A program made the position numbers and the translations under genes. Below are positions 392 to 17,100 of a stretch of 64,000 bases of DNA, in pieces. Within the stretch, counting starts at the first letter, position 1; the number at the start of each line of letters is the position of its first letter. The stretch lies in the IMG/VR virus record IMGVR_UViG_3300021255_000031; one strand, given 5' to 3'. The notes under the pieces were generated by a model that did not search any database, was not told the origin of the DNA, and saw only the letters and a program-made list of their open reading frames with translations. Source of the stretch: a virus (taxonomy: Duplodnaviria; Heunggongvirae; Uroviricota; Caudoviricetes).

Positions 392-460
392 ATTATATCA
401 CAATAATTGCGATTGTCAAGTTAAAAGTGAGTTAAGACTAAACTGGATGTTAAACATCCA
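392..460 (-). promoter_or_regulatory. promoter (-10 392-397 ext TGTGATATAAT; -35 TTGACA 414-419) + palindrome core TGGATGTTAAACATCCA 444-460
   Basis: read on minus strand; drives P-loop gene. Confidence 0.7.
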
Positions 461-473
461 ATTTCCTTTTAAG

Positions 474-496
474 AAAAAGCCCGCCGTGTGGCGGGC
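474..496 (-). terminator. intrinsic terminator (GCCCGCC-ACAC-GGCGGGC + U5 on minus strand)
   Basis: directly after stop of 503..907. Confidence 0.7.
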
Positions 497-502
497 TTGG
501 GA

Positions 503-907
503 TTACTTCAAGCGATACACATTTGCCTTGCCCTTGGCTTCGGTCTTAACAAGCCCGGTTGCCATTTCACGAAGCAAGATGTTCTGAACCTTCTGCCAAT
601 TAAAGTCGGCGGGCAGTTCGGCTTTCGCGGCGTCATACAAGTCCTTGGCGGTGATGTCGGAAGCAAGATACTTGCGGAGGACAGGAGCAACCTTGGCAAC
701 GAGGTCGGCACGTGCCGCCGCGGTGGCTGCCTTGCGCTTTTCCTTGGCTTCGGGAGAGGAAGCGCGGGTAGCGGAGAGCTGGTCGATCATACCGCCGACA
801 ACATCAAGCGCGTCCTTAATCGCGTTCTGCTGGTCATCGGTGAAGCTGGAGAGGTCACAAGCGTTGATGGTCTGGGTAACGATAGTCAGGGCGTTCTTCT
901 TAGTCAT
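503..907 (-). CDS. hypothetical early protein, family A (paralog of 5937..6269)
   Basis: 134-aa ORF with own promoter (961-989), AGAAAGG SD, terminator 474-496; shares N-terminal MTKN..L..VT and LPADF motif with 5937..6269. Confidence 0.7.
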   Translation of the reverse strand: MTKKNALTIVTQTINACDLSSFTDDQQNAIKDALDVVGGMIDQLSATRASSPEAKEKRKAATAAARADLVAKVAPVLRKYLASDITAKDLYDAAKAELPADFNWQKVQNILLREMATGLVKTEAKGKANVYRLK

Positions 908-960
908 ACTTTTCTACCTTTCTGGTTTGTAAGGGTTTTCCTTCCCTTGATTACGCTATA

Positions 961-989
961 ATTATATCACAGATTTGTGAGTTTGTCAA
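961..989 (-). promoter_or_regulatory. promoter for 503..907 (TATAAT 961-966 with TGTGA ext; TTGACA 984-989; 17-nt spacer)
   Basis: innermost of three stacked promoters. Confidence 0.7.
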
Positions 990-1007
990 GTTAAGAATTT
1001 GTTAATT

Positions 1008-1094
1008 GATGGTGGGTTATCCCTTTTCGTTCCCCTACCATCATTGCCTACGGCAATTGTGGTGCTTATTGGGAATAGGCTTCTTGCTTTCAAC
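1008..1094 (-). ncRNA. candidate about 85-nt transcript from orphan promoter
   Basis: contains perfect hairpin AUUGCC-GUA-GGCAAU (1043-1057); no ORF. Confidence 0.25.
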
Positions 1095-1100
1095 GTAATT

Positions 1101-1129
1101 ATTATATCACGGATTTGGGATTTTGTCAA
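1101..1129 (-). promoter_or_regulatory. orphan consensus promoter (TATAAT 1101-1106; TTGACA 1124-1129), no ORF before next promoter
   Basis: TTGACA-N17-TGATATAAT on minus strand. Confidence 0.6.
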
Positions 1130-1130
1130 G

Positions 1131-1297
1131 TGTTTTCTTCGTTAAGTTCTTGAGAGAGTTTTGACGCTATGCGCAACTTGCATCTTAATTCCTCGTGCGT
1201 TCCGCTCTTACGAGTGCCGAAGCAGTACCGTCTATTGCTACTTCCAACCGTAGCCCCACACGCGACCAGTGGCTCAGAGGTTTTCTCCCTCAAGAAC
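1131..1297 (-). ncRNA. candidate about 165-nt structured transcript from orphan promoter (no ORF)
   Basis: 5-prime GUUCUUGAGGGAG pairs with 3-prime CUCUCUCAAGAAC; internal UUCG tetraloop hairpin; bounded by promoters at 1304-1332 and 1101-1129. Confidence 0.3.
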
Positions 1298-1303
1298 AAT
1301 ATC

Positions 1304-1383
1304 ATTATACCATCATACCCATAATATGTCAAGTTAAGAATTTGTTAAGCTGGACTGGGAAACTTGGATGTTTAACATCCAAA
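1304..1383 (-). promoter_or_regulatory. orphan promoter (TGGTATAAT 1304-1309; TTGACA 1327-1332) + palindrome 1365-1383
   Basis: no ORF in the about 170 nt downstream. Confidence 0.6.
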
Positions 1384-1398
1384 TTCCCGTAGGGGAAG

Positions 1399-1419
1399 GC
1401 GGGACGCTGGGCGTCCCGC
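1399..1419 (-). terminator. GC hairpin GCGGGACGC-CCA-GCGUCCCGC after 1426..2967 (no clean U-run)
   Basis: perfect 9-bp stem. Confidence 0.45.
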
Positions 1420-1425
1420 TTCGGT

Positions 1426-2967
1426 TTAGGAGAACATGATATGGAAAGCTTTTGTGATATTTTCAATTAACTTTTCGGTGTATTGACTGGTTACGATAAC
1501 CTTTGCTTTAGTGAATTGATAATCATTACGCATATACTGTTTATTATCGACATCGGTAATAAGGCAAGTATGGGGCTGGTCTATCTGTTTGAATAGCTCA
1601 CTGCAAGTTTCTACACTGCCGGAATTATCACTTAAAGCGTCACCATCAAACAGGAAGATATTATAATTATAACTGTCCTTTTTTTGAAGATTGTTGAAAA
1701 TCTCGGTTAGGTTTTTTGGCAAGTCGTTTCCACCAGTACAATGCATTTGTCGCTCTTTAACACTTTGGCAAGTTACAAAATCATAATTGATAAATGAAAC
1801 ACTCAAAGAGAAATTGGGATTTTTTCTCTCGACTTCGGACAAGAAAGCCAGTAAAGCATTTACAATACCTTCATTATTCCTAAAGCTGCCCGAACGGTCA
1901 AGGAACAAATTCAAACGGCAAGTTCCATATTTTGTGTTACCATTTGTCACGGCTGAACGCTCAAAGTATTTATAATCATCACGCACCACGGCGCGGGGAT
2001 TAAATACGCCGCTATAAGCATTAAAGCCAGAGCCGTTTGAGTTCTTTTTATTGAAATTAGAAATAAGTCGTTCAATAATATTTTCCGCGCCCGCCAACTG
2101 TTGCTTAGCGTTATCGTTAAGCATTTTATCAGCAGAAAGGGCTTGCTTTGCTATTTCGCGGACAATTGCGCGACCAAGGGCTTCACAAGTTGTATTTTCT
2201 TCACCACTTTCGACTTCTTCGGCTTCGCCTTCACTGGCTTCGGCTTCTTCTGTCTTTTCGGCTTCATCATTCTTTATAACATCATCAAAGCCTGTCGTAG
2301 CGGTTTTTTTATCGGCCTTGTCGCCTTTTTCGCCTTCGCCGCTTTTACTCTGCGGTGGGGTTTCTACCTTGCAAGCGTCGGGGTCACCCGCGATTTTCTT
2401 AAATAAAGTCCTTATATCGCTGACATAATTCCAAATTTTTTCATAATCAGTTAAGGCGCTAATATTATTATATTTGTTAATTATTCTTTTTACTTCTTCA
2501 ATATATCCTGCTTTACCATAGCGAAAACGCACAATATTGAAAAAGCGTTGAATGGGGTCAGTCGCGGCGGGGTCAAGCTGGCAAATATTACGGAGCTGCT
2601 GTTTGAAGTCAGTATCAAGGTAATAATCGCTAAGAAGGGTTTCAATGCGCTCATCTTCAAAGATATTGAAAGCAGTGCGCTGTTGCTCATTGTGTGCCAT
2701 TCTAAGTAAATCATTGGGGGTCAAAATAACGTGGCTGATTTCGTGATAGAGCATAGAACGAACAGCCGTTTCCGTATAGCTTTCATCCATTACCGCTTCC
2801 AGCCCTTTGGCAATAATAGGGTAGGAAATAACAATCTTGTTTTCCATAGGCGAATAATAGCTGGTGGGCGCTTCCGTATCAAGAGAAACAGGAACTTGCT
2901 TCCCGCAGTAGTAGCCGATGGGTAGGGTTTTCAAGATTGCGTCAATGGTGTTGATACTTACGAACAT
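1426..2967 (-). CDS. VWA-domain protein with HExxH metallopeptidase-like N-terminal domain (DUF2201-like), partner of MoxR ATPase
   Basis: HEISH motif; C-terminal MIDAS-like DRSGS..GGND..FDGDA; GAAGGGAGAA SD; promoter 2998-3026. Confidence 0.7.
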   Translation of the reverse strand: MFVSINTIDAILKTLPIGYYCGKQVPVSLDTEAPTSYYSPMENKIVISYPIIAKGLEAVMDESYTETAVRSMLYHEISHVILTPNDLLRMAHNEQQRTAFNIFEDERIETLLSDYYLDTDFKQQLRNICQLDPAATDPIQRFFNIVRFRYGKAGYIEEVKRIINKYNNISALTDYEKIWNYVSDIRTLFKKIAGDPDACKVETPPQSKSGEGEKGDKADKKTATTGFDDVIKNDEAEKTEEAEASEGEAEEVESGEENTTCEALGRAIVREIAKQALSADKMLNDNAKQQLAGAENIIERLISNFNKKNSNGSGFNAYSGVFNPRAVVRDDYKYFERSAVTNGNTKYGTCRLNLFLDRSGSFRNNEGIVNALLAFLSEVERKNPNFSLSVSFINYDFVTCQSVKERQMHCTGGNDLPKNLTEIFNNLQKKDSYNYNIFLFDGDALSDNSGSVETCSELFKQIDQPHTCLITDVDNKQYMRNDYQFTKAKVIVTSQYTEKLIENITKAFHIMFS

Positions 2968-2997
2968 TATTTTGTTCTCCCTTCATTTGATGATATA

Positions 2998-3078
2998 ATT
3001 ATAGCACCATACCCCTATATTGTCAAGTTAAGATTGTGTAAAGTTCGGCAGACGGGTATTTGGATGTTTAACATCCAA
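2998..3078 (-). promoter_or_regulatory. promoter (TATAAT 2998-3003; TTGACA 3021-3026) + palindrome 3060-3078
   Basis: drives VWA gene. Confidence 0.7.
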
Positions 3079-3090
3079 ATTCCATTTGTT

Positions 3091-3118
3091 AAAAAAATGT
3101 TGCGGGTTTAACCCGCAA
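3091..3118 (-). terminator. intrinsic terminator GUUGCGGGUUAAACCCGCAAC + U7
   Basis: overlaps stop of MoxR gene; palindrome starts 12 nt later. Confidence 0.75.
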
Positions 3119-4106
3119 CAAATTCACCAGTGATTGCGCCCGCAAGCTGTTCTGCGCTAAGCACAAACTCACGAATATCTTCGCACCTATCGACAAGCGG
3201 CTCGGGCAAGCCATAAGTTACACCGCCGAGGGTCAAGTTCATAGTACCGATGATTTCAAAACCATCATTGATATGGACTTCACGGTTTTTGTAGAAGAAG
3301 GACTTTTTGCCATCTACAATGCCCTGCAAGAAACGGAGACTATCAAAGGGAAGAAGGTTGATTTCATCAAGCACAATGGGCTTTCCCTGTTCCATACATT
3401 CCCAAAGCATAGAGGGGTTGAAGTCGGGCTTGCCGTCCTTGAAAATGAAGTTTTCCATCAAGTCGGCGGGAAGCATAGAAGAATTACATACGATACAGCG
3501 GTTATCCGTTTCGGACTGCGCGAGAGTGGTCTTGCCAGTGCCAGCAGAGCCATAATAAACCTTGAAGCGGTTATTGATTACCTGCGAAGGCGCGCCGTAT
3601 TCCTTAATCTTTTTGAGAAGTTCGGAAAATTCCTTACTACGAATTTTCTGCTCTACATCATTAGCAAAGGAAGAACCCGTCAGCGCGAAGTAATGGTTGA
3701 TATAGTTCTTTGCTTCGGTTTGGCTTTTTACTGCCTTTTGCGCGAGGGTGTTAGTGAAACGGAAGGAGGGCACGAAGTCAAACTCTGTAAAGAATTTCAG
3801 CAGTTCGCCCAGCCCTTCCAGCAGCTGCGCCTTTTTATCTACAGGAAGTTCTGCGGCGGCTTCCACTACATCGGCTACAGCTTCGACCTGTTCAGCAGTC
3901 AGCCAGCTCGGAAAGGTAATACGGCCATCAGCAATAGCATCTACTCTATTAAGAGTAGGGATGCAACGGCAAGTATTATACAGATTGACAGCTTCGTTAT
4001 ACTCGGGCGCGTAGGATGGAACGACAGTAACTTTGCCCTTATACTGAATAACGATAGGAGAACCCTTGCAAGAGCGAGAAATTGACAGGTCAGAAGATAC
4101 GAACAT
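3108..4106 (-). CDS. MoxR-like AAA+ ATPase
   Basis: Walker A GSAGTGKTT, Walker B IVLDEIN; 332 aa; promoter 4156-4184; terminator 3091-3118. Confidence 0.75.
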   Translation of the reverse strand: MFVSSDLSISRSCKGSPIVIQYKGKVTVVPSYAPEYNEAVNLYNTCRCIPTLNRVDAIADGRITFPSWLTAEQVEAVADVVEAAAELPVDKKAQLLEGLGELLKFFTEFDFVPSFRFTNTLAQKAVKSQTEAKNYINHYFALTGSSFANDVEQKIRSKEFSELLKKIKEYGAPSQVINNRFKVYYGSAGTGKTTLAQSETDNRCIVCNSSMLPADLMENFIFKDGKPDFNPSMLWECMEQGKPIVLDEINLLPFDSLRFLQGIVDGKKSFFYKNREVHINDGFEIIGTMNLTLGGVTYGLPEPLVDRCEDIREFVLSAEQLAGAITGEFVAG

Positions 4107-4155
4107 AGCGTTGCCTTTCTGGTTTGTTGTTGTTTTCCTTCAACTTTGTGATTAG

Positions 4156-4184
4156 ATTATATCATAAGGTGGGAAGTTTGTCAA
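4156..4184 (-). promoter_or_regulatory. promoter for MoxR gene (TGATATAAT 4156-4161; TTGACA 4179-4184)
   Basis: 17-nt spacer. Confidence 0.7.
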
Positions 4185-4242
4185 GTTAAGATTTTGTTAT
4201 CTTGGTTTCTTTCCTTGCTTCCGTCCCTCAATCAACAATAAC

Positions 4243-4322
4243 ATTATACCATGTAGGGGCATATATGTCAAGTTAAGATTGCGTTAAGTGGCGGAGAAGG
4301 AAGTTGGATGTTTAACATCCAA
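4243..4322 (-). promoter_or_regulatory. orphan promoter (TGGTATAAT 4243-4248; TTGACA 4266-4271) + palindrome 4304-4322
   Basis: about 50-nt transcribed spacer before next promoter. Confidence 0.6.
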
Positions 4323-4340
4323 ACTATGAAAAGGGGAGGA

Positions 4341-4673
4341 TTACTCCTCCTCCTCCTCTGCTTCGGCGATTGCTGCAATGCTGTTGAATAGGTCAAAGAT
4401 GTCATAGGTCTGCTGGTGTTCTGTTCTCTCACCCAACAGATAGTCTATCATCTCTTCGGGCGGAAGCGCCGTTACATCACCTTCATCCCATTCAAAGCCA
4501 TAGCTCTCTACATAGCCTTCGTTATTGTGATAGCTGCCGCTATGACAGATAATATCCCCAAGAGGAAAGGCAGGGAAGCGCCACTGATAGCCGTCGAAGC
4601 AAGGGGCTACGGTGTATTTGATGCCTGCTTCGTCAAGGAGATGATTAAAGTAATCACGAGTATCTTCAAACAT
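4341..4673 (-). CDS. hypothetical acidic protein (C-terminal EAEEEEE)
   Basis: 110-aa ORF, promoter 4725-4753, hairpin 4334-4350 at 3-prime end. Confidence 0.6.
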   Translation of the reverse strand: MFEDTRDYFNHLLDEAGIKYTVAPCFDGYQWRFPAFPLGDIICHSGSYHNNEGYVESYGFEWDEGDVTALPPEEMIDYLLGERTEHQQTYDIFDLFNSIAAIAEAEEEEE

Positions 4674-4724
4674 TTTTTTTGTTCCTCTCTGGTTTGTTTG
4701 TGTTTTCCTTCACTTGATGGTATA

Positions 4725-4753
4725 ATTATAACACATAAGTGGCTGTGTGTCAA
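4725..4753 (-). promoter_or_regulatory. promoter for 4341..4673 (TGTTATAAT 4725-4730; TTGACA 4748-4753), no palindrome
   Basis: 17-nt spacer. Confidence 0.65.
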
Positions 4754-4754
4754 G

Positions 4755-5033
4755 TTAAAACTGTGTAAAACCCAATTCGTAGAAAAAGTCTTGATCTACT
4801 CCATCGGGAATGCTACAATATAATTCATAAAATTCTTTATACTTCTTTTTAGTTTCTTCTTCATTTCGAGATTCAAAGTATAATTCTAAACCGAAATCAT
4901 CATAACCCCAAGCACTTAGACGAGTATAATATAAACCATTATAAAAGTTTAGATTTAATATAAGTTTAATTTGATGATTTGGATAACAGGGACACCAATT
5001 ATCTGTAACCTTTATCATTCGTTCAATAGTCAT
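4755..5033 (-). CDS. hypothetical protein
   Basis: 92 aa; SD AAAGGAGAA; promoter+palindrome 5064-5134. Confidence 0.6.
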   Translation of the reverse strand: MTIERMIKVTDNWCPCYPNHQIKLILNLNFYNGLYYTRLSAWGYDDFGLELYFESRNEEETKKKYKEFYELYCSIPDGVDQDFFYELGFTQF

Positions 5034-5063
5034 AATGTTAGTTCTCCTTTACTTTGTATATGT

Positions 5064-5134
5064 ATTATAACATCTTATACCATAAATGTCAAGTTAAGAT
5101 TTGATGAAGTGGTTATTGGATGTTAAACATCCAA
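5064..5134 (-). promoter_or_regulatory. promoter (TATAAT 5064-5069; TTGACA 5087-5092) + palindrome variant TTGGATGTTAAACATCCAA 5116-5134
   Basis: drives 4755..5033. Confidence 0.7.
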
Positions 5135-5140
5135 ATTTCT

Positions 5141-5160
5141 AAAAGGGCGATTACTCGCCC
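5141..5160 (-). terminator. terminator hairpin GGGCGA-GUAA-UCGCCC + U-run
   Basis: after 5151..5567. Confidence 0.6.
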
Positions 5161-5567
5161 TCCTGTTCGTGTATCATTCTGTCAAGTCCCTTTTTGTTAA
5201 GTTCCTTGATAGTTTTCTTCGCTTCGCGCTTGGCTTCACGCGCCTTGGCTGCTGCTTCCTTTTTCGCGGCGCTGGCTTCTTTCTTTGCTTGGGTTCTTTC
5301 GCAATCAAGTTTGTAATCTTCCGCGGCGGCGTAACCGTCATAATCGTCATAGCCGCCTTTGCCGTTACGAGTGCCACGAGGAATAGTAACTTTGATTAAC
5401 ACAAATTTATCATTCCCATCGGCATCTACTACAGGGATAGCAATTTCGCTGGCGCTTACTACGCAAATTTGCTTGTCAATGTCAAGGTCGTAATGTGCGG
5501 AGAGGGCTTCTTTAACGACTTGAAGTGCTTCAACGCGGAGGGCATTTTCCAAACTGGCTTTACTCAT
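5151..5567 (-). CDS. hypothetical protein with Lys/Ala/Glu-rich C-terminal tail
   Basis: 138 aa; promoter 5598-5625; terminator 5145-5160. Confidence 0.6.
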   Translation of the reverse strand: MSKASLENALRVEALQVVKEALSAHYDLDIDKQICVVSASEIAIPVVDADGNDKFVLIKVTIPRGTRNGKGGYDDYDGYAAAEDYKLDCERTQAKKEASAAKKEAAAKAREAKREAKKTIKELNKKGLDRMIHEQEGE

Positions 5568-5597
5568 ATCTTTGACTTCCTTTCTTTTGATAGTTCT

Positions 5598-5625
5598 ATT
5601 ATATCACAAATTTGAAAAATGTCAA
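5598..5625 (-). promoter_or_regulatory. promoter for 5151..5567 (TGTGATATAAT 5598-5603; TTGACA 5620-5625; 16-nt spacer)
   Basis: no palindrome. Confidence 0.6.
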
Positions 5626-5789
5626 GACTTTTTTATCTTTTCCTTTGTTAAAATTCCGTAAATTTGGAGGGCGAATGTTATAAGAAATATTACCTTAAAT
5701 TTTGTTTCTTCTGTAAAAGCCCAAAGTAAAAATGAAATAAAGCATACCAAAGCAAGCGCATGAAAAATCCCCCAAAGTATTTTTGCCAT
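5622..5789 (-). CDS. small membrane protein (2 predicted TM helices)
   Basis: Start moved to MAKILWG after AAAGGGGAAAAG SD; hydrophobic segments; promoter+palindrome 5822-5897. Confidence 0.55.
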   Translation of the reverse strand: MAKILWGIFHALALVCFISFLLWAFTEETKFKVIFLITFALQIYGILTKEKIKKS

Positions 5790-5821
5790 AACCGACTTTT
5801 CCCCTTTCATTTGATGTATAA

Positions 5822-5897
5822 ATTATACCAAAGTCGGTTTGTTTTGTCAAGTTAAGTTTCTGTTAAGTGAGATGGAATTTGGATGTTTAACATCCAA
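5822..5897 (-). promoter_or_regulatory. promoter (TGGTATAAT 5822-5827; TTGACA 5845-5850) + palindrome 5879-5897
   Basis: drives small membrane protein gene. Confidence 0.7.
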
Positions 5898-5905
5898 TTT
5901 TTGAT

Positions 5906-5931
5906 AAAAGGAAAGGGGACTTGCGTCCCCT
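5906..5931 (-). terminator. terminator hairpin AGGGGAC-GCAA-GUCCCCU + U-rich
   Basis: after 5937..6269. Confidence 0.6.
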
Positions 5932-5936
5932 TGTGC

Positions 5937-6269
5937 TTACGCCTTGGTGTACTGGTTCGGGCCCTTGGCGTTTTCAATCTTATTGACTTCGGAAGCCCAC
6001 ATTGCGCGGAGGGCGTACTGAAGCTTGGACTTGGTGAAGTCGGCGGGCAGACCCGTGCAAGCATCGAAAATCTCGGCAACGGTGCGCGGCGTGTCGTCAA
6101 TGACTGCCATTACAATGTCATGCGACTTGTCGTACAGCTCGCGGTTAGCGTTAGCCTTTTCTACATTCTTAGCCTGCTCCGCCACAAGCTCGGCGGTCGC
6201 ATCAGCCAGTTCGGGAATGTCGTGCGCGGTCAGGTAGGTTACAAGGGCGTTCAGAGTGTTCTTAGTCAT
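5937..6269 (-). CDS. hypothetical early protein, family A (paralog of 503..907)
   Basis: 110 aa; AGAAAGG leader; promoter 6320-6348; terminator 5914-5931. Confidence 0.65.
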   Translation of the reverse strand: MTKNTLNALVTYLTAHDIPELADATAELVAEQAKNVEKANANRELYDKSHDIVMAVIDDTPRTVAEIFDACTGLPADFTKSKLQYALRAMWASEVNKIENAKGPNQYTKA

Positions 6270-6319
6270 ATCAGTTGCCTTTCTGGTGTTAGGGATTTTC
6301 CTTTCCCTTTTGTGATTAT

Positions 6320-11142: not shown

Positions 11143-11174
11143 TGTTTTTTCTCTCCTTTCTTTTTTACAATTAA

Positions 11175-11255: not shown

Positions 11256-11262
11256 ATCATAT

Positions 11263-11282
11263 AAGGACGATCATTCGTCCTT
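11263..11282 (-). terminator. hairpin AAGGACGA-AUGA-UCGUCCUU overlapping stop of 51-aa ORF
   Basis: perfect 8-bp stem. Confidence 0.5.
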
Positions 11283-11426
11283 AACCTCGATAAATCTTTC
11301 ATCATCTTCAATTTCTATGATTTTACGATATAGTGATTCGGCGAGGTTTGTATCTGTAATTATTTCGTTAATTTTTTCATGAATGACTTTACGGAGTTCA
11401 AGTAAAGTGATTTGCAATGTCATCAT
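11271..11426 (-). CDS. small hypothetical protein (51 aa)
   Basis: Not in ORF table (<60 aa); own promoter+palindrome 11453-11543, GGGAGAG SD, terminator hairpin 11263-11282. Confidence 0.5.
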   Translation of the reverse strand: MMTLQITLLELRKVIHEKINEIITDTNLAESLYRKIIEIEDDERFIEVKDE

Positions 11427-11452
11427 TTTTCTCTCCCTTCTTTGATAATGCC

Positions 11453-11543
11453 ATTATATCATAGTTTCGGGAGTTTGTCAATATATTTTTATGTTAAATA
11501 AAAGTTAAATCATTTAAAATGAAATTGGATGTTTAACATCCAA
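11453..11543 (-). promoter_or_regulatory. promoter (TGATATAAT 11453-11458; TTGACA 11476-11481) + palindrome 11525-11543
   Basis: drives 51-aa ORF. Confidence 0.65.
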
Positions 11544-11552
11544 ATTCCTAAA

Positions 11553-11572
11553 ACGACTGCGTTAGCAGTCGT
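11553..11572 (-). terminator. hairpin ACGACUGC-UAAC-GCAGUCGU + U-rich
   Basis: after 11562..11819. Confidence 0.55.
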
Positions 11573-11819
11573 AGTCATAGCCGCCCTCGTATGGATTGAA
11601 GCCCGTTTCATCAACATCATCTTCAATGTCGTAGCTACAGCTGTTCTCATATTCTTCCCAGCTCTCATAGTAGGCACCAAAGTCAGAGCACTCTTCCAGC
11701 GGGTCGCTGATGTGGCACAGCCCATCCTTATCACAGTAGGGGCAGGTCATGTCAGCAATAGGGCAGAACACGTTCAGGCCGTTGCGAGTGCCATCGGTTT
11801 CAAAATCTTTCTTACTCAT
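11562..11819 (-). CDS. small Cys-rich acidic protein
   Basis: start MSKKDF after AAAGGAAG SD; 8+ Cys incl CPYCDKDGLCH; promoter+palindrome 11850-11931. Confidence 0.6.
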   Translation of the reverse strand: MSKKDFETDGTRNGLNVFCPIADMTCPYCDKDGLCHISDPLEECSDFGAYYESWEEYENSCSYDIEDDVDETGFNPYEGGYDYDC

Positions 11820-11849
11820 AATGATTACTTCCTTTCTTTTGATGGTATA

Positions 11850-11931
11850 ATTATAACACGAAACGCTCATAAAGTCAAGTTAAGTTTATGTTAAAAGCGC
11901 CAGAAGTAGAAGTTGGATGTCTAACATCCAA
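11850..11931 (-). promoter_or_regulatory. promoter (TGTTATAAT 11850-11855; TTGACT 11873-11878) + palindrome variant TTGGATGTCTAACATCCAA 11913-11931
   Basis: drives Cys-rich gene. Confidence 0.65.
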
Positions 11932-11958
11932 AATATATAAGCTGGTTTACGCCAGCTT
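11931..11958 (-). terminator. hairpin AAGCUGG-CGUAAA-CCAGCUU + AUAUAUUUU
   Basis: after 11947..12216. Confidence 0.55.
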
Positions 11959-12216
11959 GCGAATTTCTCCGGTTTTGATGTTCATTTGCGTGCGGTTAAT
12001 GTAGCACTGCTTTGCGTCATAGTAGCTTAGCCCCAGCTCACGCATGAACCAGCTGATATGTTTAATGGTCGTGCGGCTATACAGACCATAGCAGGTTAGC
12101 CAGCCTTTACTATCGATGCTAATTACTTTGGTGTGGTAGCTAATCAATTTGGTGATGCTGCTGTCGGTGATGATGCACGCCTGCGCGTATTTGTGGCCGT
12201 TCAATTTCCTTATCAT
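11947..12216 (-). CDS. hypothetical protein, family B (paralog of 13601..13918)
   Basis: start MIRKLNG after GGAGGG SD; shared LISYxT..I.ID..G.LTC.G.YS.TT.KHI...Q.NI.TGE core. Confidence 0.65.
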   Translation of the reverse strand: MIRKLNGHKYAQACIITDSSITKLISYHTKVISIDSKGWLTCYGLYSRTTIKHISWFMRELGLSYYDAKQCYINRTQMNIKTGEIRKLA

Positions 12217-12265
12217 TGTTATGCCCTCCAAAATTGTTTTATTTCGTTCCCTCAAGAACAATTAT

Positions 12266-12356
12266 ATTATACTACATATAGGGCAATATGTCAATAGTTT
12301 TTTGTGTTAAGAGTGCATTAAATCGGCCGAGTGATTTTTGGATGTTTAACATCCAA
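12266..12356 (-). promoter_or_regulatory. promoter (TATAAT 12266-12271; TTGACA 12289-12294) + palindrome 12338-12356
   Basis: leader begins GUUCUUGAGGGAAC (same motif as orphan RNA at 1285-1297). Confidence 0.65.
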
Positions 12357-12375
12357 CTTTTTTTAAAGGACGGTG

Positions 12376-12612
12376 TTAATCGTCCAAAAGAGTCGGCTCA
12401 ATTATCCAACGGCCTTTGTTAGTGATATAGACATGCAAGCCGTTATCCTGTTCTATATAATCCAGCTTGGTTTCTTCATAATCCTCTATCCAGCATTCAA
12501 TTTGATTACGAGCTTTATCGAAGCTGGTAAAAGCACCCCAAACGCCGCCGTAAAGGTTGGTAGCTTGGGGAGTGAGCCCCTTGAAGGTAACGATGTAAAT
12601 TAGCTGTGTCAT
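12376..12612 (-). CDS. hypothetical protein
   Basis: 78 aa; promoter+palindrome 12644-12715. Confidence 0.6.
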   Translation of the reverse strand: MTQLIYIVTFKGLTPQATNLYGGVWGAFTSFDKARNQIECWIEDYEETKLDYIEQDNGLHVYITNKGRWIIEPTLLDD

Positions 12613-12643
12613 GTTTTTTTACTTCCTTTCCTTTGATGTTTGT

Positions 12644-12715
12644 ATTATAACATAGAGCACGCAAAATGTCAAGTTAAGTTTGCGTAAATATAAAAGTTGG
12701 ATGTTTAACATCCAA
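12644..12715 (-). promoter_or_regulatory. promoter (TGTTATAAT 12644-12649; TTGACA 12667-12672) + palindrome 12697-12715
   Basis: drives 12376..12612. Confidence 0.7.
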
Positions 12716-12732
12716 TAAAAGGTAGAGGAGGT

Positions 12733-12930
12733 TTATTCCTCCTCCTCATCATCTATAAACAGTGTCGGATAAAGCGTAATTTCTTTAATCCAGCGCTTGG
12801 TGGTGGGCGTGTCGCTGATTTCCAACATCTCATTCAGGCGCGTAGCTTTTTTCAGGGACGGGACGGCGCAGAGAACATGAATGTCACCATCTTCGTGGTA
12901 GCGGGCGCATAGCAGGTAAATCTTATCCAT
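12733..12930 (-). CDS. small acidic protein (C-terminal DDEEEE)
   Basis: start MDKIYLL after AAAGGAGATAA SD; promoter+palindrome 12963-13042. Confidence 0.55.
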   Translation of the reverse strand: MDKIYLLCARYHEDGDIHVLCAVPSLKKATRLNEMLEISDTPTTKRWIKEITLYPTLFIDDEEEE

Positions 12931-12962
12931 ATTTGTTATCTCCTTTCCTTGATTACATATAT

Positions 12963-13042
12963 AGTATATCATAGATAGACACAAGTGTCAAGTTAAGTGT
13001 TTGTTAAGCCGTGCAAATATAATTTGGATGTTTAACATCCAA
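12963..13042 (-). promoter_or_regulatory. promoter (TGATATACT 12963-12968; TTGACA 12986-12991) + palindrome 13024-13042
   Basis: drives 12733..12930. Confidence 0.65.
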
Positions 13043-13051
13043 CTTTTTTAT

Positions 13052-13071
13052 AAACGGCATCACTGCCGTTT
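13052..13071 (-). terminator. hairpin AAACGGCA-GUGA-UGCCGUUU + AUAAAAAAGUU
   Basis: after 13060..13146. Confidence 0.55.
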
Positions 13072-13146
13072 ACTTGCTATTAACACGAAGTTAATGAAAG
13101 CGCTTATGATAATTAACATTGCTATAACAAACATTATTGTTCTCAT
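13060..13146 (-). CDS. 28-aa hydrophobic peptide (MRTIMFVIAMLIIISAFINFVLIASKRQ)
   Basis: AAAGGAGG SD 6 nt before ATG, overlaps stop of upstream gene; single TM-like segment. Confidence 0.4.
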   Translation of the reverse strand: MRTIMFVIAMLIIISAFINFVLIASKRQ

Positions 13147-13147
13147 T

Positions 13148-13459
13148 TTACGCCTCCTTTACATAAACTAAACTCATGTTAGACCATTTAAGCACACTGA
13201 TTTGGTTATGTTCTTTACCTATTCTTAACGCTTCCTTTTTCGTGCTGACACGGAAGGAATGGTCGATATAATAGACGCCTTCACTATACCAGATGCCGCA
13301 GCTTCCCTGCATCTTTTCCACAGCTCGCACAGCAGCTTTCAGCGTCTTGCGCTCAACACCATAATCCGCGACTTGATAGCCAGATTTGTAGGTTATGGCT
13401 TTACCTGCTTTTAACGTGAGTCCATCGTTGTTTTTGAGAGCTTTCAGAAGTTCGTACAT
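13148..13459 (-). CDS. hypothetical protein
   Basis: 103 aa; promoter+palindrome 13491-13582. Confidence 0.6.
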   Translation of the reverse strand: MYELLKALKNNDGLTLKAGKAITYKSGYQVADYGVERKTLKAAVRAVEKMQGSCGIWYSEGVYYIDHSFRVSTKKEALRIGKEHNQISVLKWSNMSLVYVKEA

Positions 13460-13490
13460 GAGTTTTAATCCCCTTTCATTTGATGATTAT

Positions 13491-13582
13491 ATTATAGCAC
13501 TGCGCGCCCATTATGTCAATACCTTTTTGTGTTAAGTTATTGTAAATCGCCATAAAAAATAATTTGGATGTTTAACATCCAA
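13491..13582 (-). promoter_or_regulatory. promoter (TGCTATAAT 13491-13496; TTGACA 13514-13519) + palindrome 13564-13582
   Basis: drives 13148..13459 + 28-aa peptide ORF. Confidence 0.7.
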
Positions 13583-13612
13583 AAAAGTTGAACGGGATTT
13601 TTAATCCCGTTC
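13582..13612 (-). terminator. terminator GAACGGGAU-UAAAAA-AUCCCGUUC + U-run
   Basis: after 13601..13918. Confidence 0.65.
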
Positions 13613-13918
13613 GCCCGTCCGAATGTTAATTTTTTGATTCGTGCATGCAATACTCTTAATATCGGCGTAACAGAGAGACGGCGCGTATTCTTTCAGAAAA
13701 GCTCTAATGTGCTTGCGCGTAGTGGGGCTGTATGTGCCCGTGCAAGTCAAGTATCCCGCCTTGTCAATCTCAATGATACGCGTGGTGTAGCTTATTAGCG
13801 CTATTGTACCGTCGTGGTAAATATCCACGCCTGCGCTACCGTAGGGACAATATTTAAGATTGCGGTCGTAGTTAACAGTGATGTAGCGGTATCCATCAAG
13901 AATCTTTTTGCTGTACAT
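13601..13918 (-). CDS. hypothetical protein, family B (paralog of 11947..12216)
   Basis: start MYSKKIL after GGAGG SD; promoter+palindrome 13968-14059; terminator 13590-13612. Confidence 0.65.
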   Translation of the reverse strand: MYSKKILDGYRYITVNYDRNLKYCPYGSAGVDIYHDGTIALISYTTRIIEIDKAGYLTCTGTYSPTTRKHIRAFLKEYAPSLCYADIKSIACTNQKINIRTGERD

Positions 13919-13967
13919 TGTAGCAGCCTCCGTATTTTTATTTGTTCCTTTCCTTTGGAACAATTAT

Positions 13968-14059
13968 ATTATATCATAGGGGGCCTGTTTTGTCAATAGT
14001 TTTTTATGTTAAGTTGCGGTAAATTCGCGCGGGAAATAAATTGGATGTGTAACATCCAA
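13968..14059 (-). promoter_or_regulatory. promoter (TGATATAAT 13968-13973; TTGACA 13991-13996) + palindrome variant TTGGATGTGTAACATCCAA 14041-14059
   Basis: drives 13601..13918. Confidence 0.7.
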
Positions 14060-14066
14060 CTTTTTT

Positions 14067-14090
14067 CATTCGAGGATTATTCCTCGAATG
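14067..14090 (-). terminator. hairpin CAUUCGAGGA-AUAA-UCCUCGAAUG + AAAAAAG
   Basis: after 14077..14253. Confidence 0.5.
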
Positions 14091-14253
14091 GGTCGTTACA
14101 CGACCATATAAGATGATGGTCGTCATAGACGAAAATCGCGGCAGTCGCATCTTTATTTTGGATAGTAGAAACGGCTTCCCAAGCTTTTTGCGCGGAGGTA
14201 AAGGAGTAGCGGGCGCTGATGAGGCTGGAATATACAACGATGATATCAAACAT
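14077..14253 (-). CDS. small hypothetical protein
   Basis: start MFDIIVV after AAGGGAGA SD; promoter+palindrome 14285-14366. Confidence 0.55.
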   Translation of the reverse strand: MFDIIVVYSSLISARYSFTSAQKAWEAVSTIQNKDATAAIFVYDDHHLIWSCNDPFEE

Positions 14254-14284
14254 GGTTTTTTGTCTCCCTTCACTTGATGATATA

Positions 14285-14366
14285 AGTATATCACACAAGG
14301 GGTAAGAAGTCAAGTTAAGTTTCGGTTAATGCCTGGCGCAGTAAAAGTTGGATGTTTAACATCCAA
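14285..14366 (-). promoter_or_regulatory. promoter (TGTGATATACT 14285-14290; TTGACT 14308-14313) + palindrome 14348-14366
   Basis: drives 14077..14253. Confidence 0.65.
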
Positions 14367-14395
14367 ATTTCTCGGAGGCGCTTAACGCGCCTCCC
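14366..14395 (-). terminator. terminator GGAGGCGC-GUUAA-GCGCCUCC + GAGAAAUUU
   Basis: after 14382..14609. Confidence 0.6.
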
Positions 14396-14609
14396 ATTCT
14401 TCTTCTGTTATGTCTATTATGTTAAGAATGTCCTCTATATAATAGGCAAAGATATCATTGAGTTCTGTGCGGTCAATGCCGGAGGGATACATCTCTTCCA
14501 TACATGCGTCAATGATGTCCCACTCTTCTTCGGTGATTTTGCTTGCGTTTGTTTCGGCGTTGCCCCAAAATTCAAAGTCGCGGATGCTGATTTCTTGCTT
14601 GATAGTCAT
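14382..14609 (-). CDS. small highly acidic protein (DNA-mimic-like composition)
   Basis: 75 aa, about one third Asp/Glu; promoter+palindrome 14640-14729; terminator 14375-14395. Confidence 0.6.
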   Translation of the reverse strand: MTIKQEISIRDFEFWGNAETNASKITEEEWDIIDACMEEMYPSGIDRTELNDIFAYYIEDILNIIDITEEEWEAR

Positions 14610-14639
14610 TGTTTTTTTCTCCTCTCTTTTGATGATATA

Positions 14640-14729
14640 ATTATAACATAGTTTCGGGATAGTGTCAATAGTTTTTTGTGTTAATTATAGATTAAGTCGA
14701 AAAAATGAAATTGGATGTTTAACATCCAA
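14640..14729 (-). promoter_or_regulatory. promoter (TGTTATAAT 14640-14645; TTGACA 14663-14668) + palindrome 14711-14729
   Basis: drives acidic 75-aa gene. Confidence 0.7.
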
Positions 14730-14737
14730 ATCTCGCA

Positions 14738-14755
14738 AGGGGATTTATTTCCCCT
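14738..14755 (-). terminator. hairpin AGGGGA-AAUAAA-UCCCCU
   Basis: after 14745..15005. Confidence 0.5.
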
Positions 14756-15005
14756 GCGGCGCGCACCCTGGACTCCACGCAAGTAGTTGCCCGTGACGCA
14801 TAATGTATGCGACAAAATTGTCTGGCGTTAATTCGCACATTTCCTGCGTCCATGCCCGCATGCAATATACGCGTCCTGGCCTATGCCCGAGGAAATTTGT
14901 TGCCATTTCGCGCAATTTTTTCATAGACTTAACATCGCTGGGCAACTTCCATTCACCATCACTACCCATAGGGATATAGTTTCCGTATTCGTAGAACAAC
15001 CACAT
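14745..15005 (-). CDS. hypothetical protein
   Basis: start MWLFYEY after AAAGGAGAAAA SD; promoter 15038-15066. Confidence 0.6.
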   Translation of the reverse strand: MWLFYEYGNYIPMGSDGEWKLPSDVKSMKKLREMATNFLGHRPGRVYCMRAWTQEMCELTPDNFVAYIMRHGQLLAWSPGCAPQGK

Positions 15006-15037
15006 AATTTTGTTTTCTCCTTTCATTTGATATTGAA

Positions 15038-15153
15038 ATTATATCATATAGGGTTAGTTTTGTCAATAGAAAATCAAATTAAAATTTGTTAATTTTATAT
15101 TAAAAACAAAAATGAAATTGCAAGAGTTGATAAGTTGGATGTTTAACATCCAA
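15038..15153 (-). promoter_or_regulatory. promoter (TGATATAAT 15038-15043; TTGACA 15061-15066) + palindrome 15135-15153 (unusually 68 nt beyond -35, AT-rich spacer)
   Basis: drives 14745..15005. Confidence 0.65.
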
Positions 15154-15169
15154 AACAATAAGAGTGGTA

Positions 15170-15463
15170 TTACCACCCTAATGTTATGCGTGTTGATTGA
15201 TATTGCATAGTATAGCCTGCGTTTCGTACAATCTTTGTGAGTTCGTCTATAAAGCATCTGGAAGCAAATTGCCCTAAGTCTGTGTTATCAAATGGCGGTA
15301 AATTGCGCCCTATGGACTGACGGCCTTTTTTACTTGCTTCTTCTATTGCTTTATTAAGTTCGGCAATGTAGTTTGGAATCTCTGTATGTAAAATACATTT
15401 GCGGACGTTGTTATAAAGTTCCGAGACATTCGCGCGGGCAACTTCGGCGTTCATAAGTTCCAT
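15170..15463 (-). CDS. hypothetical protein
   Basis: 97 aa; promoter+palindrome 15494-15573. Confidence 0.6.
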   Translation of the reverse strand: MELMNAEVARANVSELYNNVRKCILHTEIPNYIAELNKAIEEASKKGRQSIGRNLPPFDNTDLGQFASRCFIDELTKIVRNAGYTMQYQSTRITLGW

Positions 15464-15493
15464 AAGTTTTCCTCTCTTTCATTTGATGATATA

Positions 15494-15573
15494 ATTATAT
15501 CATATAGGATATAATAAGTCAAGTTAAGATTATGTTAAACAGTCATGCGCTATATTGGATGTTTAACATCCAA
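15494..15573 (-). promoter_or_regulatory. promoter (TGATATAAT 15494-15499; TTGACT 15517-15522) + palindrome 15555-15573
   Basis: drives 15170..15463. Confidence 0.65.
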
Positions 15574-15588
15574 CTCTTATCGCCCCAG

Positions 15589-15840
15589 TTATACTGGGAC
15601 GACGATGCGCGGAATTTTTCCGCGAAAGTCGCGTTCTTCCTGCAAGCGCTGTATTGCAACTTTGTAAAATTCATTGAATTTTTTCATTGTTGCGGGATAC
15701 TCTACAACGCGCCCGCCGTTGTGCGTATATATTTTTAATGGGCGCACATTGAAAACTAACATGCAAACAGTTTCAAAGGTGCTGATTGCAATAGCAAGGT
15801 CGCGCGTGTTGCCGTAGAACTTGATGTAGTAGTTTTTCAT
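15589..15840 (-). CDS. hypothetical protein
   Basis: 83 aa; GGAGGGG SD; promoter+palindrome 15871-15958. Confidence 0.55.
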   Translation of the reverse strand: MKNYYIKFYGNTRDLAIAISTFETVCMLVFNVRPLKIYTHNGGRVVEYPATMKKFNEFYKVAIQRLQEERDFRGKIPRIVVPV

Positions 15841-15870
15841 GGGATAACCCCTCCTTCATTTGATGATATA

Positions 15871-15958
15871 ATTATATCATAGTGTCGGAATAAAAGCAAG
15901 AGTTTTTTATGTTAAGTTTTGAAGAAAAGGCACAAAAAGTTGGATGTTTAACATCCAA
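15871..15958 (-). promoter_or_regulatory. promoter (TGATATAAT 15871-15876; weak -35 TTGCTT 15894-15899) + palindrome 15940-15958
   Basis: drives 15589..15840. Confidence 0.55.
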
Positions 15959-15972
15959 AATATAAGTAAAAA

Positions 15973-15986
15973 GGCGCGTATGCGCC
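15973..15986 (-). terminator. hairpin GGCGC-AUAC-GCGCC + U-run
   Basis: after 15993..16217. Confidence 0.5.
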
Positions 15987-15992
15987 ACTCTG

Positions 15993-16217
15993 TTAAGTTT
16001 CAATGTAGTATGCGGGATAACGCCCAGTCTCATTACTACAATTGTAGTATTGAAATGCATTTACAATTTTATCAAAGTCGTGTTCTAAATCTGCATAACA
16101 TTCACTATTCAAACGAATGCCAGTTTCGGGACGCATGTTACATGCTGTTATCCAAACGGGTTGATTAGCATTGAATGCCTTGCGTGCGCGAGACTTATTA
16201 ACTTTTTGAAGCGTCAT
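15993..16217 (-). CDS. hypothetical protein
   Basis: start MTLQKV after AAAGGAGAA SD; promoter+palindrome 16249-16330. Confidence 0.6.
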   Translation of the reverse strand: MTLQKVNKSRARKAFNANQPVWITACNMRPETGIRLNSECYADLEHDFDKIVNAFQYYNCSNETGRYPAYYIET

Positions 16218-16248
16218 GATTTTGTTCTCCTTTGCTTTTGATAGTCCT

Positions 16249-16330
16249 ATTATATCATATACATATATATTTGTCAAGTGCATTAACGCATATTTAACAT
16301 AGCAATATAAGTTGGATGTTTAACATCCAA
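16249..16330 (-). promoter_or_regulatory. promoter (TGATATAAT 16249-16254; TTGACA 16272-16277) + palindrome 16312-16330
   Basis: drives 15993..16217. Confidence 0.7.
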
Positions 16331-16356
16331 AAAAGTTTAGGACGTTTTCACGTCCT
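16331..16356 (-). terminator. terminator AGGACG-UGAAAA-CGUCCU + AAACUUUUUU
   Basis: after 16348..16617. Confidence 0.6.
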
Positions 16357-16617
16357 ATAGATTTTGCCATCTACTACATAGCACACCGACTCGCAACCAT
16401 CATAATCAATAATAATGTGGTCTGTTGCTTCGTCTGGTATTTCTACCACTGCCAGCTTCGCAGCCCAGCCACTTGTTTCGTATGCGTTATCTTCTACCAT
16501 GTGAATCAAGCGCTCGTCGTATCTGTCTGCGCCGTATATGCTATCCAGTCCTAATGCTTCGCAAGCTTCATCGCTCACGCTGAACCCACCAAAGCACCTA
16601 TTTACTACAATCTTCAT
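16348..16617 (-). CDS. hypothetical protein
   Basis: 89 aa; GAGAGGAGATAA SD; promoter 16649-16677; terminator 16339-16356. Confidence 0.6.
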   Translation of the reverse strand: MKIVVNRCFGGFSVSDEACEALGLDSIYGADRYDERLIHMVEDNAYETSGWAAKLAVVEIPDEATDHIIIDYDGCESVCYVVDGKIYRT

Positions 16618-16648
16618 AGCTGTTTATCTCCTCTCTTTTGATGGTATC

Positions 16649-16677
16649 ATTATATCACTATCTATATAAATAGTCAA
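16649..16677 (-). promoter_or_regulatory. promoter for 16348..16617 (TGATATAAT 16649-16654; TTGACT 16672-16677)
   Basis: 17-nt spacer. Confidence 0.65.
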
Positions 16678-16772
16678 GTTAATTGTTGGTTAAGTTAGAT
16701 ATTAAGTATTCAAAAAATCAACAATGAGGTTTATTCCTTATTGTGCGCTTGCGCTTGCGACTTTTACCTATT

Positions 16773-16861
16773 ATTATATACCCATTAAGTTGTAAAGTCA
16801 ATAGAATTTACAAAGATTTAACATTGCTTCTGCGTTAGAAAATTGGATGTGTAACATCCAA
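16773..16861 (-). promoter_or_regulatory. orphan promoter (TATAAT 16773-16778; TTGACT 16796-16801) + palindrome variant TTGGATGTGTAACATCCAA 16843-16861
   Basis: about 80-nt transcribed spacer with AU-rich hairpin + U-run (16726-16760) before next promoter. Confidence 0.55.
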
Positions 16862-16868
16862 ATCCTAA

Positions 16869-16888
16869 AAGGACGCTTGCGCGTCCTT
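16869..16888 (-). terminator. hairpin AAGGACGC-GCAA-GCGUCCUU + UUAGGAUUU
   Basis: overlaps stop of 16883..17039. Confidence 0.55.
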
Positions 16889-17039
16889 AACCGTAAATTT
16901 TGTTAAGCGCGCCGCCTTGGCGCTTAATGTAATTGCGTGCCGCTGTTTCTGATTTGAAACTTGCTTTTTTCTCGCTGCCGCCGCACCCGTCTTGCTTCCA
17001 GACCTCAAAAACTTTGCCAATGTGGAAAATGTCGTACAT
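16883..17039 (-). CDS. small basic protein (50 aa, MYDIFHIGKVFEVWKQDGCGG...)
   Basis: ATG with AGGAGG SD 10 nt upstream; replaces table ORF 16865..17047, which starts at a TTG touching the SD in another frame; promoter 17072-17100. Confidence 0.5.
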
Positions 17040-17071
17040 AGTAGCAACCTCCTTGCTTTTTATGGTTATAT

Positions 17072-17100
17072 TATACTCGTTCCAGCTTGCAAATGCAAGT
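17072..17100 (-). promoter_or_regulatory. promoter for 16883..17039 (TATAAT 17072-17077; -35 TTGCAT 17095-17100)
   Basis: 17-nt spacer; last (most upstream) promoter of the leftward array. Confidence 0.55.

Follow-up and report, generated by a model that had tools for sequence, protein, structure and literature searches.

What does a 19-bp palindrome do that stands upstream of almost every early promoter of a phage genome? The question is posed by the left part of a 64,000-nucleotide stretch of the IMG/VR virus record IMGVR_UViG_3300021255_000031 (the whole stretch is hereafter termed the window), which is part of the genome of a large Firmicute siphovirus, uncultured and from gut or rumen. 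A preliminary description of this DNA had reported 27 copies of a 9-1-9 inverted repeat, with several listed variants, within the leftmost 17 kb and none in the 47 kb to the right, and had proposed that the repeat is the dedicated operator of a dimeric, global regulator of the early genes. Our analysis points in the same direction: the palindrome is probably a duplex-DNA operator for a two-fold symmetric (dimeric) regulator of the early promoters.

We searched the whole window with TTGGATGTTTAACATCCAA, allowing up to three mismatches, and used 100 dinucleotide shuffles as the null. This revealed 27 physical sites (443-16861) against a shuffle mean of 0.04 and maximum of 1, confirming that the palindrome array is real and very far above chance. 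The window form is TTGGATGTT(A/T)AACATCCAA, and 22 of the 27 sites are perfect 9-1-9 palindromes; on the plus strand, the central base is T in 21 of these and A only at 5116. The five remaining sites are the variants that had been listed, at 443 (CTGG...), 8553 (...CATCTAA), 11913 (GTCTAAC), 14041 and 16843 (both GTGTAAC). Each position is conserved in 26-27 of the 27 sites, except the two central positions (24-25 of 27), and the information content is at its maximum over the 19 positions and at background at the edges, apart from a weak symmetric AA/TT flank. All 27 sites are intergenic. To the right of 16861 no site within three mismatches was found, and lone half-sites lie at 17523 and 20557; copy number, symmetry and confinement to the left part thus stand as first described. 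To the left, the array runs on beyond the window start, as judged from the corresponding locus of a close relative (L007).

The palindromes punctuate an array of small early genes on the minus strand, where the open reading frame (ORF) listing and a simple gene call gave ~34 genes between 1 and 17.4 kb. Read along this strand, the junctions follow one order: the end of a gene, a GC-rich hairpin, a few bases, the palindrome, 23-44 nt (once 68 nt), the promoter, the leader and the next gene. The promoters are laid out as cTTAAC-TTGACA, 17 nt, TGnTATAAT, followed by a conserved leader with a ribosome-binding site, and 25 of the 27 palindrome-linked promoters score 11-12 out of 12 against TTGACA-17-TATAAT (the other two score 9-10). 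From palindrome end to -35 box, the gap is 23-24 nt at four sites, 28 nt at one, 31-34 nt at 13, 40-44 nt at eight and 68 nt at one, which places the palindrome centres at about -69 to -90; the centre near -80 given in the preliminary description holds for the main spacing class. Each terminator-promoter junction carries one palindrome. The terminators themselves, 1-20 nt upstream of the palindrome, all keep the hairpin and all differ in sequence.

The palindrome-promoter unit was found well beyond the window when other genomes and metagenomes were searched for it, a check that the preliminary description had proposed and that yielded ~800 sites in >150 fetched loci. By exact match, the palindrome occurs in an IMG/VR contig ~95 % identical to the window (L001 and L003-L007) and in a 189-kb contig ~71 % identical to it (L008), and the metagenome scan gave at least 120 palindrome loci. 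The collected set comprises 832 sites in 155 sources (154 fetched loci and the window, ~700 kb); 117 of the 155 have at least two sites and 27 have at least 10. In 185,579 species genomes, the arrays detected by exact matching were confined to short contigs that had been binned into metagenome-assembled genomes of Acutalibacteraceae, Oscillospiraceae and Bacillota. Elsewhere in these genomes single matches occurred at roughly chance level, and no array-bearing prophage was seen in their long bacterial contigs. Among GenBank phages, megablast of the 17.5-kb region returned no match and blastn with the palindrome-promoter unit returned chance single matches only; the array appears to be carried by no isolated or annotated phage.

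Across this family the palindrome keeps its distance from the promoter. A good promoter accompanies 589 non-redundant sites, and 427 of these (72 %) lie 8-10 nt upstream of the -35 box, 352 of them at exactly 9 nt. The others cluster at 17-20, 28-34 and 39-44 nt, that is, at 9 nt plus multiples of ~11 nt; the periodicity (period 11 bp, R = 0.49, phase 8.9) is in the same phase as the 9-nt class. The gap to the upstream terminator hairpin varies widely (1-20 nt), and because the spacing to the -35 box is fixed and that to the terminator is not, we assign the palindrome to the promoter. Its canonical position in the family is about -46 to -64, with the centre near -55, if the start site is taken to lie 7 nt after the -10 box. 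The window phage represents a derived state: its palindromes are separated from the -35 box by one or two 11-bp TTAAC boxes or by a longer spacer. Its spacings of 31-34 and 40-44 nt fall on roughly the same helical face as 9 nt, whereas the four sites at 23-24 nt do not.

Variation among the relatives is largely symmetric. The commonest family form is TTAGATGTTAAACATCTAA, which differs from the window form in both arms, and the family consensus of the 19-bp palindrome is TTRGATGTTWAACATCYAA. A/T is the usual pair at 3/17 (495 sites), with G/C in 89; double changes were also found at pair 5/15 (G/C, eight sites) and pair 2/18 (A/T, six sites). Complementarity extends to positions 9 and 11 in 84 % of sites, even though a 3-nt hairpin loop would not allow these two to pair. 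Read relative to the promoter, 393 sites have A and 181 have T at the centre, and the site therefore works in both orientations. Single-arm hybrids at 3/17, read in sense orientation, are A..C in 19 cases and G..T in five, the reverse of the bias expected from pairing in sense-strand RNA. In some phages G/C, A/T and hybrid A/C sites coexist (in L137, A..C occurs at eight of 10 sites), from which it follows that position 3/17 tolerates either purine with either pyrimidine. The neighbouring terminators serve as an internal control for a purely structural constraint: because they keep a hairpin but share no sequence, the palindrome appears to be constrained in its sequence and two-fold symmetry, and not in pairing alone.

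Table 1. Features of the early region. Palindromes are not assigned to a strand; their promoters are on the minus strand, and the gap runs from palindrome end to -35 box. aa, amino acids; pLDDT, predicted local distance difference test.
Feature	Coordinates	Strand	Promoter	Gap (nt)	Remarks
Early-gene cassette array	1..17110	minus			~34 small genes; cassette = promoter, conserved leader/ribosome-binding site, gene, terminator; continues left of window
Palindrome	443..461		419-392		minus-strand read TTGGATGTTTAACATCCAG
Palindrome	1364..1382		1332-1304	31	perfect
Palindrome	3060..3078		3026-2998	33	perfect
Palindrome	4304..4322		4271-4243	32	perfect
Palindrome	5116..5134		5092-5064	23	perfect, central base inverted
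Palindrome	5879..5897		5850-5822	28	perfect
Palindrome	6503..6521		6460-6432	42	perfect
Palindrome	7687..7705		7653-7625	33	perfect
Palindrome	8553..8571		8521-8493	31	variant (minus-strand TTAGATG...CATCCAA)
Palindrome	9123..9141		9091-9063	31	perfect
Palindrome	10250..10268		10218-10190	31	perfect
Palindrome	10753..10771		10728-10700	24	perfect
Palindrome	11237..11255		11203-11175	33	perfect
Palindrome	11525..11543		11481-11453	43	perfect
Palindrome	11913..11931		11878-11850	34	centre variant TTAGA
Palindrome	12338..12356		12294-12266	43	perfect
Palindrome	12697..12715		12672-12644	24	perfect
Palindrome	13024..13042		12991-12963	32	perfect
Palindrome	13564..13582		13519-13491	44	perfect
Palindrome	14041..14059		13996-13968	44	centre variant TTACA
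Palindrome	14348..14366		14313-14285	34	perfect; promoter TTGACT/TATACT
Palindrome	14711..14729		14668-14640	42	perfect
Palindrome	15135..15153		15066-15038	68	perfect; outlier in spacing
Palindrome	15555..15573		15522-15494	32	perfect
Palindrome	15940..15958		15899-15871	40	perfect; weaker promoter (TTGCTT/TATAAT)
Palindrome	16312..16330		16277-16249	34	perfect
Palindrome	16843..16861		16801-16773	41	centre variant TTACA; first copy in the direction of transcription
Winged-helix protein type A, 110 aa	5937..6269	minus			weak candidate binder; AlphaFold 2 pLDDT 93.8
Winged-helix protein type B, 134 aa	503..907	minus			weak candidate binder; paralogue of type A

These data are best explained by an operator, and the hundreds of copies in diverged relatives, mostly locked at 9 nt from the -35 box, strengthen that part of the preliminary proposal; the regulator that it postulates did not emerge from our searches. 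Recognition of duplex DNA by a symmetric dimer is favoured because the constraint is symmetric at the sequence level and because the palindrome follows a terminator, where little transcription is expected. A dimeric, sequence-specific protein would then sit on the upstream edge of each early sigma-A-type promoter, in most relatives within the zone where the alpha C-terminal domains of RNA polymerase dock. In the window phage the site would have been shifted upstream in ~11-bp steps, with TTAAC boxes filling the gap. One protein acting at ~30 sites would switch the whole cassette array, which is of host-takeover type, together. Repression seems more likely than activation, because core promoters so close to consensus, and with an extended -10 box, would seemingly need no activator. 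A possible mode is early shut-off during the lytic cycle, with RNA polymerase blocked or trapped through contacts that depend on the helix face; a lytic lifestyle with shut-off is weakly favoured over maintenance of lysogeny because no array-bearing prophage was seen in long bacterial contigs. The contact with polymerase could be made through the alpha C-terminal domain, as by phi29 p4 at promoter A2c, or by a higher-order assembly. Steric occlusion appears less likely than a face-dependent contact, because the site sits at -55, -66, -77 or -88, in 11-bp steps. A role as a roadblock or insulator against read-through into each promoter would be compatible with such an operator and might apply.

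Several observations weigh against the operator reading. The site centres (-55 to -90) do not overlap the core promoter, so that simple steric repression is not obvious, and the 11-bp periodicity could stem from the 11-bp TTAAC-box modules and not from helical phasing. Control of the array would also be incomplete, since seven strong minus-strand promoters have no palindrome (16677, 6348, 5625, 4753, 4184, 1129 and 989). All seven are internal or tandem promoters, second or third in their cassette, with no terminator before them; the first promoter of the array (~17100, TTGCAT-17-TATAAT) also lacks a palindrome. The family sites come from related phages and are not independent, which inflates the statistics. 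The upstream module seems, moreover, to be replaceable. The 131.8-kb contig ERZ27297789 k141_36517 (L155), from a related lineage without the GATG palindrome, carries at the equivalent position of several promoters direct repeats of the form (A)TGTTAA-N4-ATGTTAAA, followed by GGCCGGCC, TTAAC boxes and the promoter (e.g. at 6139, 8143, 9153, 10382, 13779 and 14449). As the inner part of a palindrome arm also reads (A)TGTTAA, it is conceivable, though speculative, that one protein reads this half-site in either arrangement. Also on this side of the balance are the stability of the hairpin that the palindrome could form, taken up below, and two negative results on the binding protein: no DNA-binding regulator was recognised among ~60 window proteins in Pfam and PHROGs, and tblastn of SPbeta YopR against the window and L001-L159 (>700 kb) gave no MrpR/YopR homologue, with no hit better than E = 3, although ~100 kb of the phage genome lie beyond the window and were not part of this search.

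The preliminary description had stated that no binder could be identified by sequence, which is essentially what we found: the same Pfam and PHROGs scans returned no helix-turn-helix protein among the ~60 window proteins, 10 proteins past the array end of the relative L005 included no clear regulator, and weak HU-like and linker-histone-like matches were the only regulator hints. A search for an autoregulated repressor, by way of palindromes that overlap the core promoter, gave one case among 198 weak-promoter sites. Clustering the ORFs of all loci revealed that the most widespread early family is a protein of 107-135 amino acids in two paralogue types, both present in the window (Table 1). 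This family has weak DUF6958 matches and stray winged-helix Pfam matches. Its confident AlphaFold model (pLDDT 93.8) has a winged helix after a long helical hairpin, with Zur/PerR, ArsR/SmtB, TubR, CodY and O-methyltransferase dimerisation domains as the nearest folds, all at weak E-values. In the window, each of the two genes has two or three strong promoters in tandem ahead of it. The model-based case for this family as the binder is nonetheless weak, because L155 encodes both types and has no palindrome in the 20 kb examined; covariation of protein and site could not be read, position 3/17 being purine/pyrimidine tolerant. The protein of 260 amino acids encoded at 17707-18489, divergently from the array, was considered as a regulator and dropped, as its D..E.K pattern resembles that of PD-(D/E)xK nucleases. 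In this protein, which has no match in Pfam or PHROGs, D137, E147 and K153 are invariant in 28 homologues.

If the palindrome is an operator, the protein that reads it might belong to the host. A host global regulator could tie early expression to the state of the host, or be soaked up by ~30 sites per genome, and we regard this as unlikely, though less so than the other alternatives. The early promoters have to be active when no phage protein has yet been made, no phage-encoded binder was found, and the same phage does use a host regulator site: a perfect CIRCE (the HrcA operator, TTAGCACTC-N9-GAGTGCTAA) lies at 17442-17468, where none is expected by chance, between a weak promoter-like site and the minus-strand ORF 17071-17418. 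This CIRCE suggests that a phage gene is under the control of the host heat-shock repressor and that the host has HrcA; Acutalibacteraceae and Oscillospiraceae are the candidate hosts. Linking early expression to the host also has a precedent in phi29, which does so via Spo0A. Against a host regulator, the arrays in species genomes are restricted to short, phage-like contigs and all other matches are single and at chance level, although exact-match scanning is insensitive to degenerate host sites; to our knowledge, the palindrome fits no regulator consensus. A stronger form, in which the array is both sensor and sink, with the high-affinity site of a dimeric host factor on every early promoter and at least 30 sites multiplied by replication draining the host regulon, seems more doubtful still. 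Another improbable reading takes the palindromes for activator sites of class-I type, bound by a protein that enters the cell together with the virion DNA.

Explanations that dispense with a bound regulator fare no better. Transcribed, the palindrome would form a second hairpin after the terminator, with an 8-10 bp stem, a 3-nt loop and a stability of -10 to -13 kcal/mol (z = -4.6 to -6.9); it stands just after each terminator, and its two arms change together in relatives, so that it could back up the terminator, stabilise 3' ends or mark a site of processing. Yet its sequence is near-invariant where the true terminators beside it conserve structure and not sequence, its symmetry continues through the loop positions, A..C hybrids outnumber G..U in sense orientation, and its spacing is fixed to the -35 box (9 nt) and not to the terminator, downstream of which little transcription is expected. 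The features of an intrinsic terminator are also missing: the stem has three G-C pairs only, no consistent U-tract follows (the downstream sequence is A-rich in relatives), and a separate true terminator precedes it. With no match in an Rfam gathering scan of 1-19000 either, an RNA or single-strand hairpin is an unlikely function despite its stability, and the backup terminator raised in the preliminary description finds no support. The same description had offered recombination sites that shuffle cassettes, and cassettes have indeed been gained and lost. Whole cassettes distinguish the 95 %-identical relative from the window: L001 lacks 12716-13042, and L006 has an extra cassette at the 9123-9141 site and lacks 6522-8549, with homology beginning no more than 1 nt from the palindrome's 5' edge at two junctions (window 9142 and 6522). 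However, the homology at these junctions spans the whole 80-113 nt palindrome-promoter module, as ordinary homologous recombination would give; the array contains no recognised recombinase; and a recombination site would require neither the rigid 9-nt spacing from the -35 box seen in relatives nor an invariant sequence. Integron attC sites are likewise a poor match, since here the sequence is invariant, each cassette has its own promoter and no integrase was recognised in the array. Cassette shuffling is thus likely a side-effect of homologous exchange between ~100-bp repeats and not the selected function of the palindrome; a cassette-boundary site, whether served by a dedicated recombinase or by shared homology, is about as improbable as the hairpin. 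Finally, both arms of the window form contain GGATG/CATCC, the FokI/StsI site, which had prompted the suggestion of a nuclease target or decoy. Roughly 80 % of family sites read AGATG/CATCT, and outside the palindromes the word occurs 65 times in the window against ~79 expected, neither avoided nor enriched, refuting this suggestion almost completely.

Further features of the early region were noted alongside the palindromes. Among 25 assessable cassettes, 20 have their stop codon (almost always TAA) within the loop of the terminator, so that the 5' arm of the stem is made of the gene's final codons, and the same was seen by eye in the distant relatives L082, L050 and L089; a terminating ribosome would cover this arm, which may couple translation and termination. 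TTAAC boxes occur directly against the -35 hexamer (CTTAACTTGACA), with a second box 11-12 nt upstream (e.g. 1332-1350, 3026-3046 and 4271-4290), while ~7 early promoters instead have CTTAAC, an A-rich ~12-nt spacer (typically ACAAAAAACTA) and then TTGACA. These boxes are absent from relatives with the 9-nt spacing and present in the L155 lineage, and may constitute a second cis-element. Two or three tandem near-perfect promoters with repeated leaders were found at 6460-6320, 1332-961 and 4271-4156 in the window and at 8462-8640 and 9686-9920 in L155; the genes behind them are those of both winged-helix paralogues and of an AAA ATPase. A long, unusual leader ending in ACCAGAAAGG is common to several genes. 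Just upstream of the first early promoter (~17100-17400, minus strand) lie ~8 CTTAAC/CTTTAC motifs and, at ~17115-17160, a tandem AAGCTGG repeat of ~6 copies; ORF 17071-17418, which overlaps with this stretch, is possibly not a genuine gene.

Beyond the array, the window encodes a tape measure protein of 4,142 amino acids (34048-46476), implying an exceptionally long tail, together with a Dit-like protein, a portal, NrdD, dUTPase and GIY-YIG endonucleases, two genes for the latter lying at 56750-58674. The large terminase subunit is apparently split into ORFs 20927-21844 and 23080-23988, with an HNH homing-endonuclease gene (21940-23019) between them. The portal is ~23-30 % identical to those of Enterococcus EF1-type phages, Lactococcus phage WRP3 (949-type), Brevibacillus phage Sundance and SPbeta-like phages. 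One window protein is present in identical form on a 167,282-bp metagenomic contig; sources include SRR873598 (Logan assembly), JGI sample 3300002641 and AUXO GCA_001684375.1.

Were the operator reading true, one protein-DNA interaction would switch the entire host-takeover programme in a clade of large phages (genomes of ~130-190 kb) of gut and rumen Clostridia, a clade that is widespread but uncultured. The palindrome serves as a sequence marker for early regions in metagenomes (at least 120 loci in one scan) and sets the borders of ~30 cassettes per genome that are complete in themselves (promoter, leader, gene, terminator); these are a ready source of candidate genes for host takeover or anti-defence and of strong, portable Clostridia promoters. 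The binder, once found, would complete a compact orthogonal operator-regulator pair. Specialists would expect a multi-copy operator in a large phage; what is unusual is the scale (~30 promoters per genome and hundreds of copies in the clade), the strict 9-nt coupling to the -35 box and the great regularity of the cassettes.

How, then, does this palindrome compare with known systems? Phage phiC31 has conserved inverted repeats, palindromes of ~17-19 bp that lie between early-region genes near highly similar early promoters and are bound by one repressor. The window array resembles these in its repeated palindromes beside similar early promoters, and differs in that phiC31 has an actinomycete host, early promoters that are not sigma-70-like, a different repeat sequence and a known repressor gene. 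The p4 protein of phi29 binds as a dimer upstream of promoters, at about -70 to -82, and contacts the alpha C-terminal domain, including in repression by blocking promoter escape; its sites are split inverted repeats (CTTTTT-N15-AAAATG), few per genome, centred at -82 for activation and -71 for repression. An upstream site at strong sigma-A-type promoters is common to both systems. The window centres fall at about -69 to -90 and the family norm near -55, and the comparison with p4 made in the preliminary description is a loose analogy only. Unlike the p4 sites, the 9-1-9 palindrome is contiguous and serves ~30 promoters, and the p4 family was absent from the Pfam and PHROG matches of the ~60 window proteins. 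The C1 operators of phage P1 are a further example of multi-copy phage operators.

The closest precedent in a large Firmicute siphovirus is SPbeta, in which SPBRE, a 15-bp motif, is present at ~10 promoter regions of early or lytic genes, all copies being bound by the master repressor MrpR/YopR, which represses them jointly (PMC10516654). Here too, a short conserved element recurs in many early-gene promoter regions (27 sites in the window, ~800 in the family), the portals of the two phages are distantly related, and the SPBRE/MrpR precedent supports an operator function. The two differ in the number of sites (at least 27 versus ~10), in the 19-bp perfect palindrome, which is unrelated to SPBRE as far as can be judged, in the MrpR/YopR homologue, for which the tblastn search described above gave no hit, and in lifestyle, SPbeta being temperate and the present phage showing no sign of lysogeny in the data seen. 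The stoperators of phages L5 and Bxb1 are asymmetric 13-14 bp sites, bound by a monomer and dependent on orientation, that lie inside transcription units and stop elongation (PMC9283540, PMC6550527). As in those phages, dozens of sites for one putative protein occupy short intergenic gaps, and a roadblock or insulator role is possible; in contrast to stoperators, our sites are palindromic, occur with the centre in both orientations and lie between terminator and promoter at a fixed distance from the -35 box. The array thus works like known multi-copy phage operators without the defining molecular feature of any named system, and most likely represents a known kind of phage control in a new group of phages.

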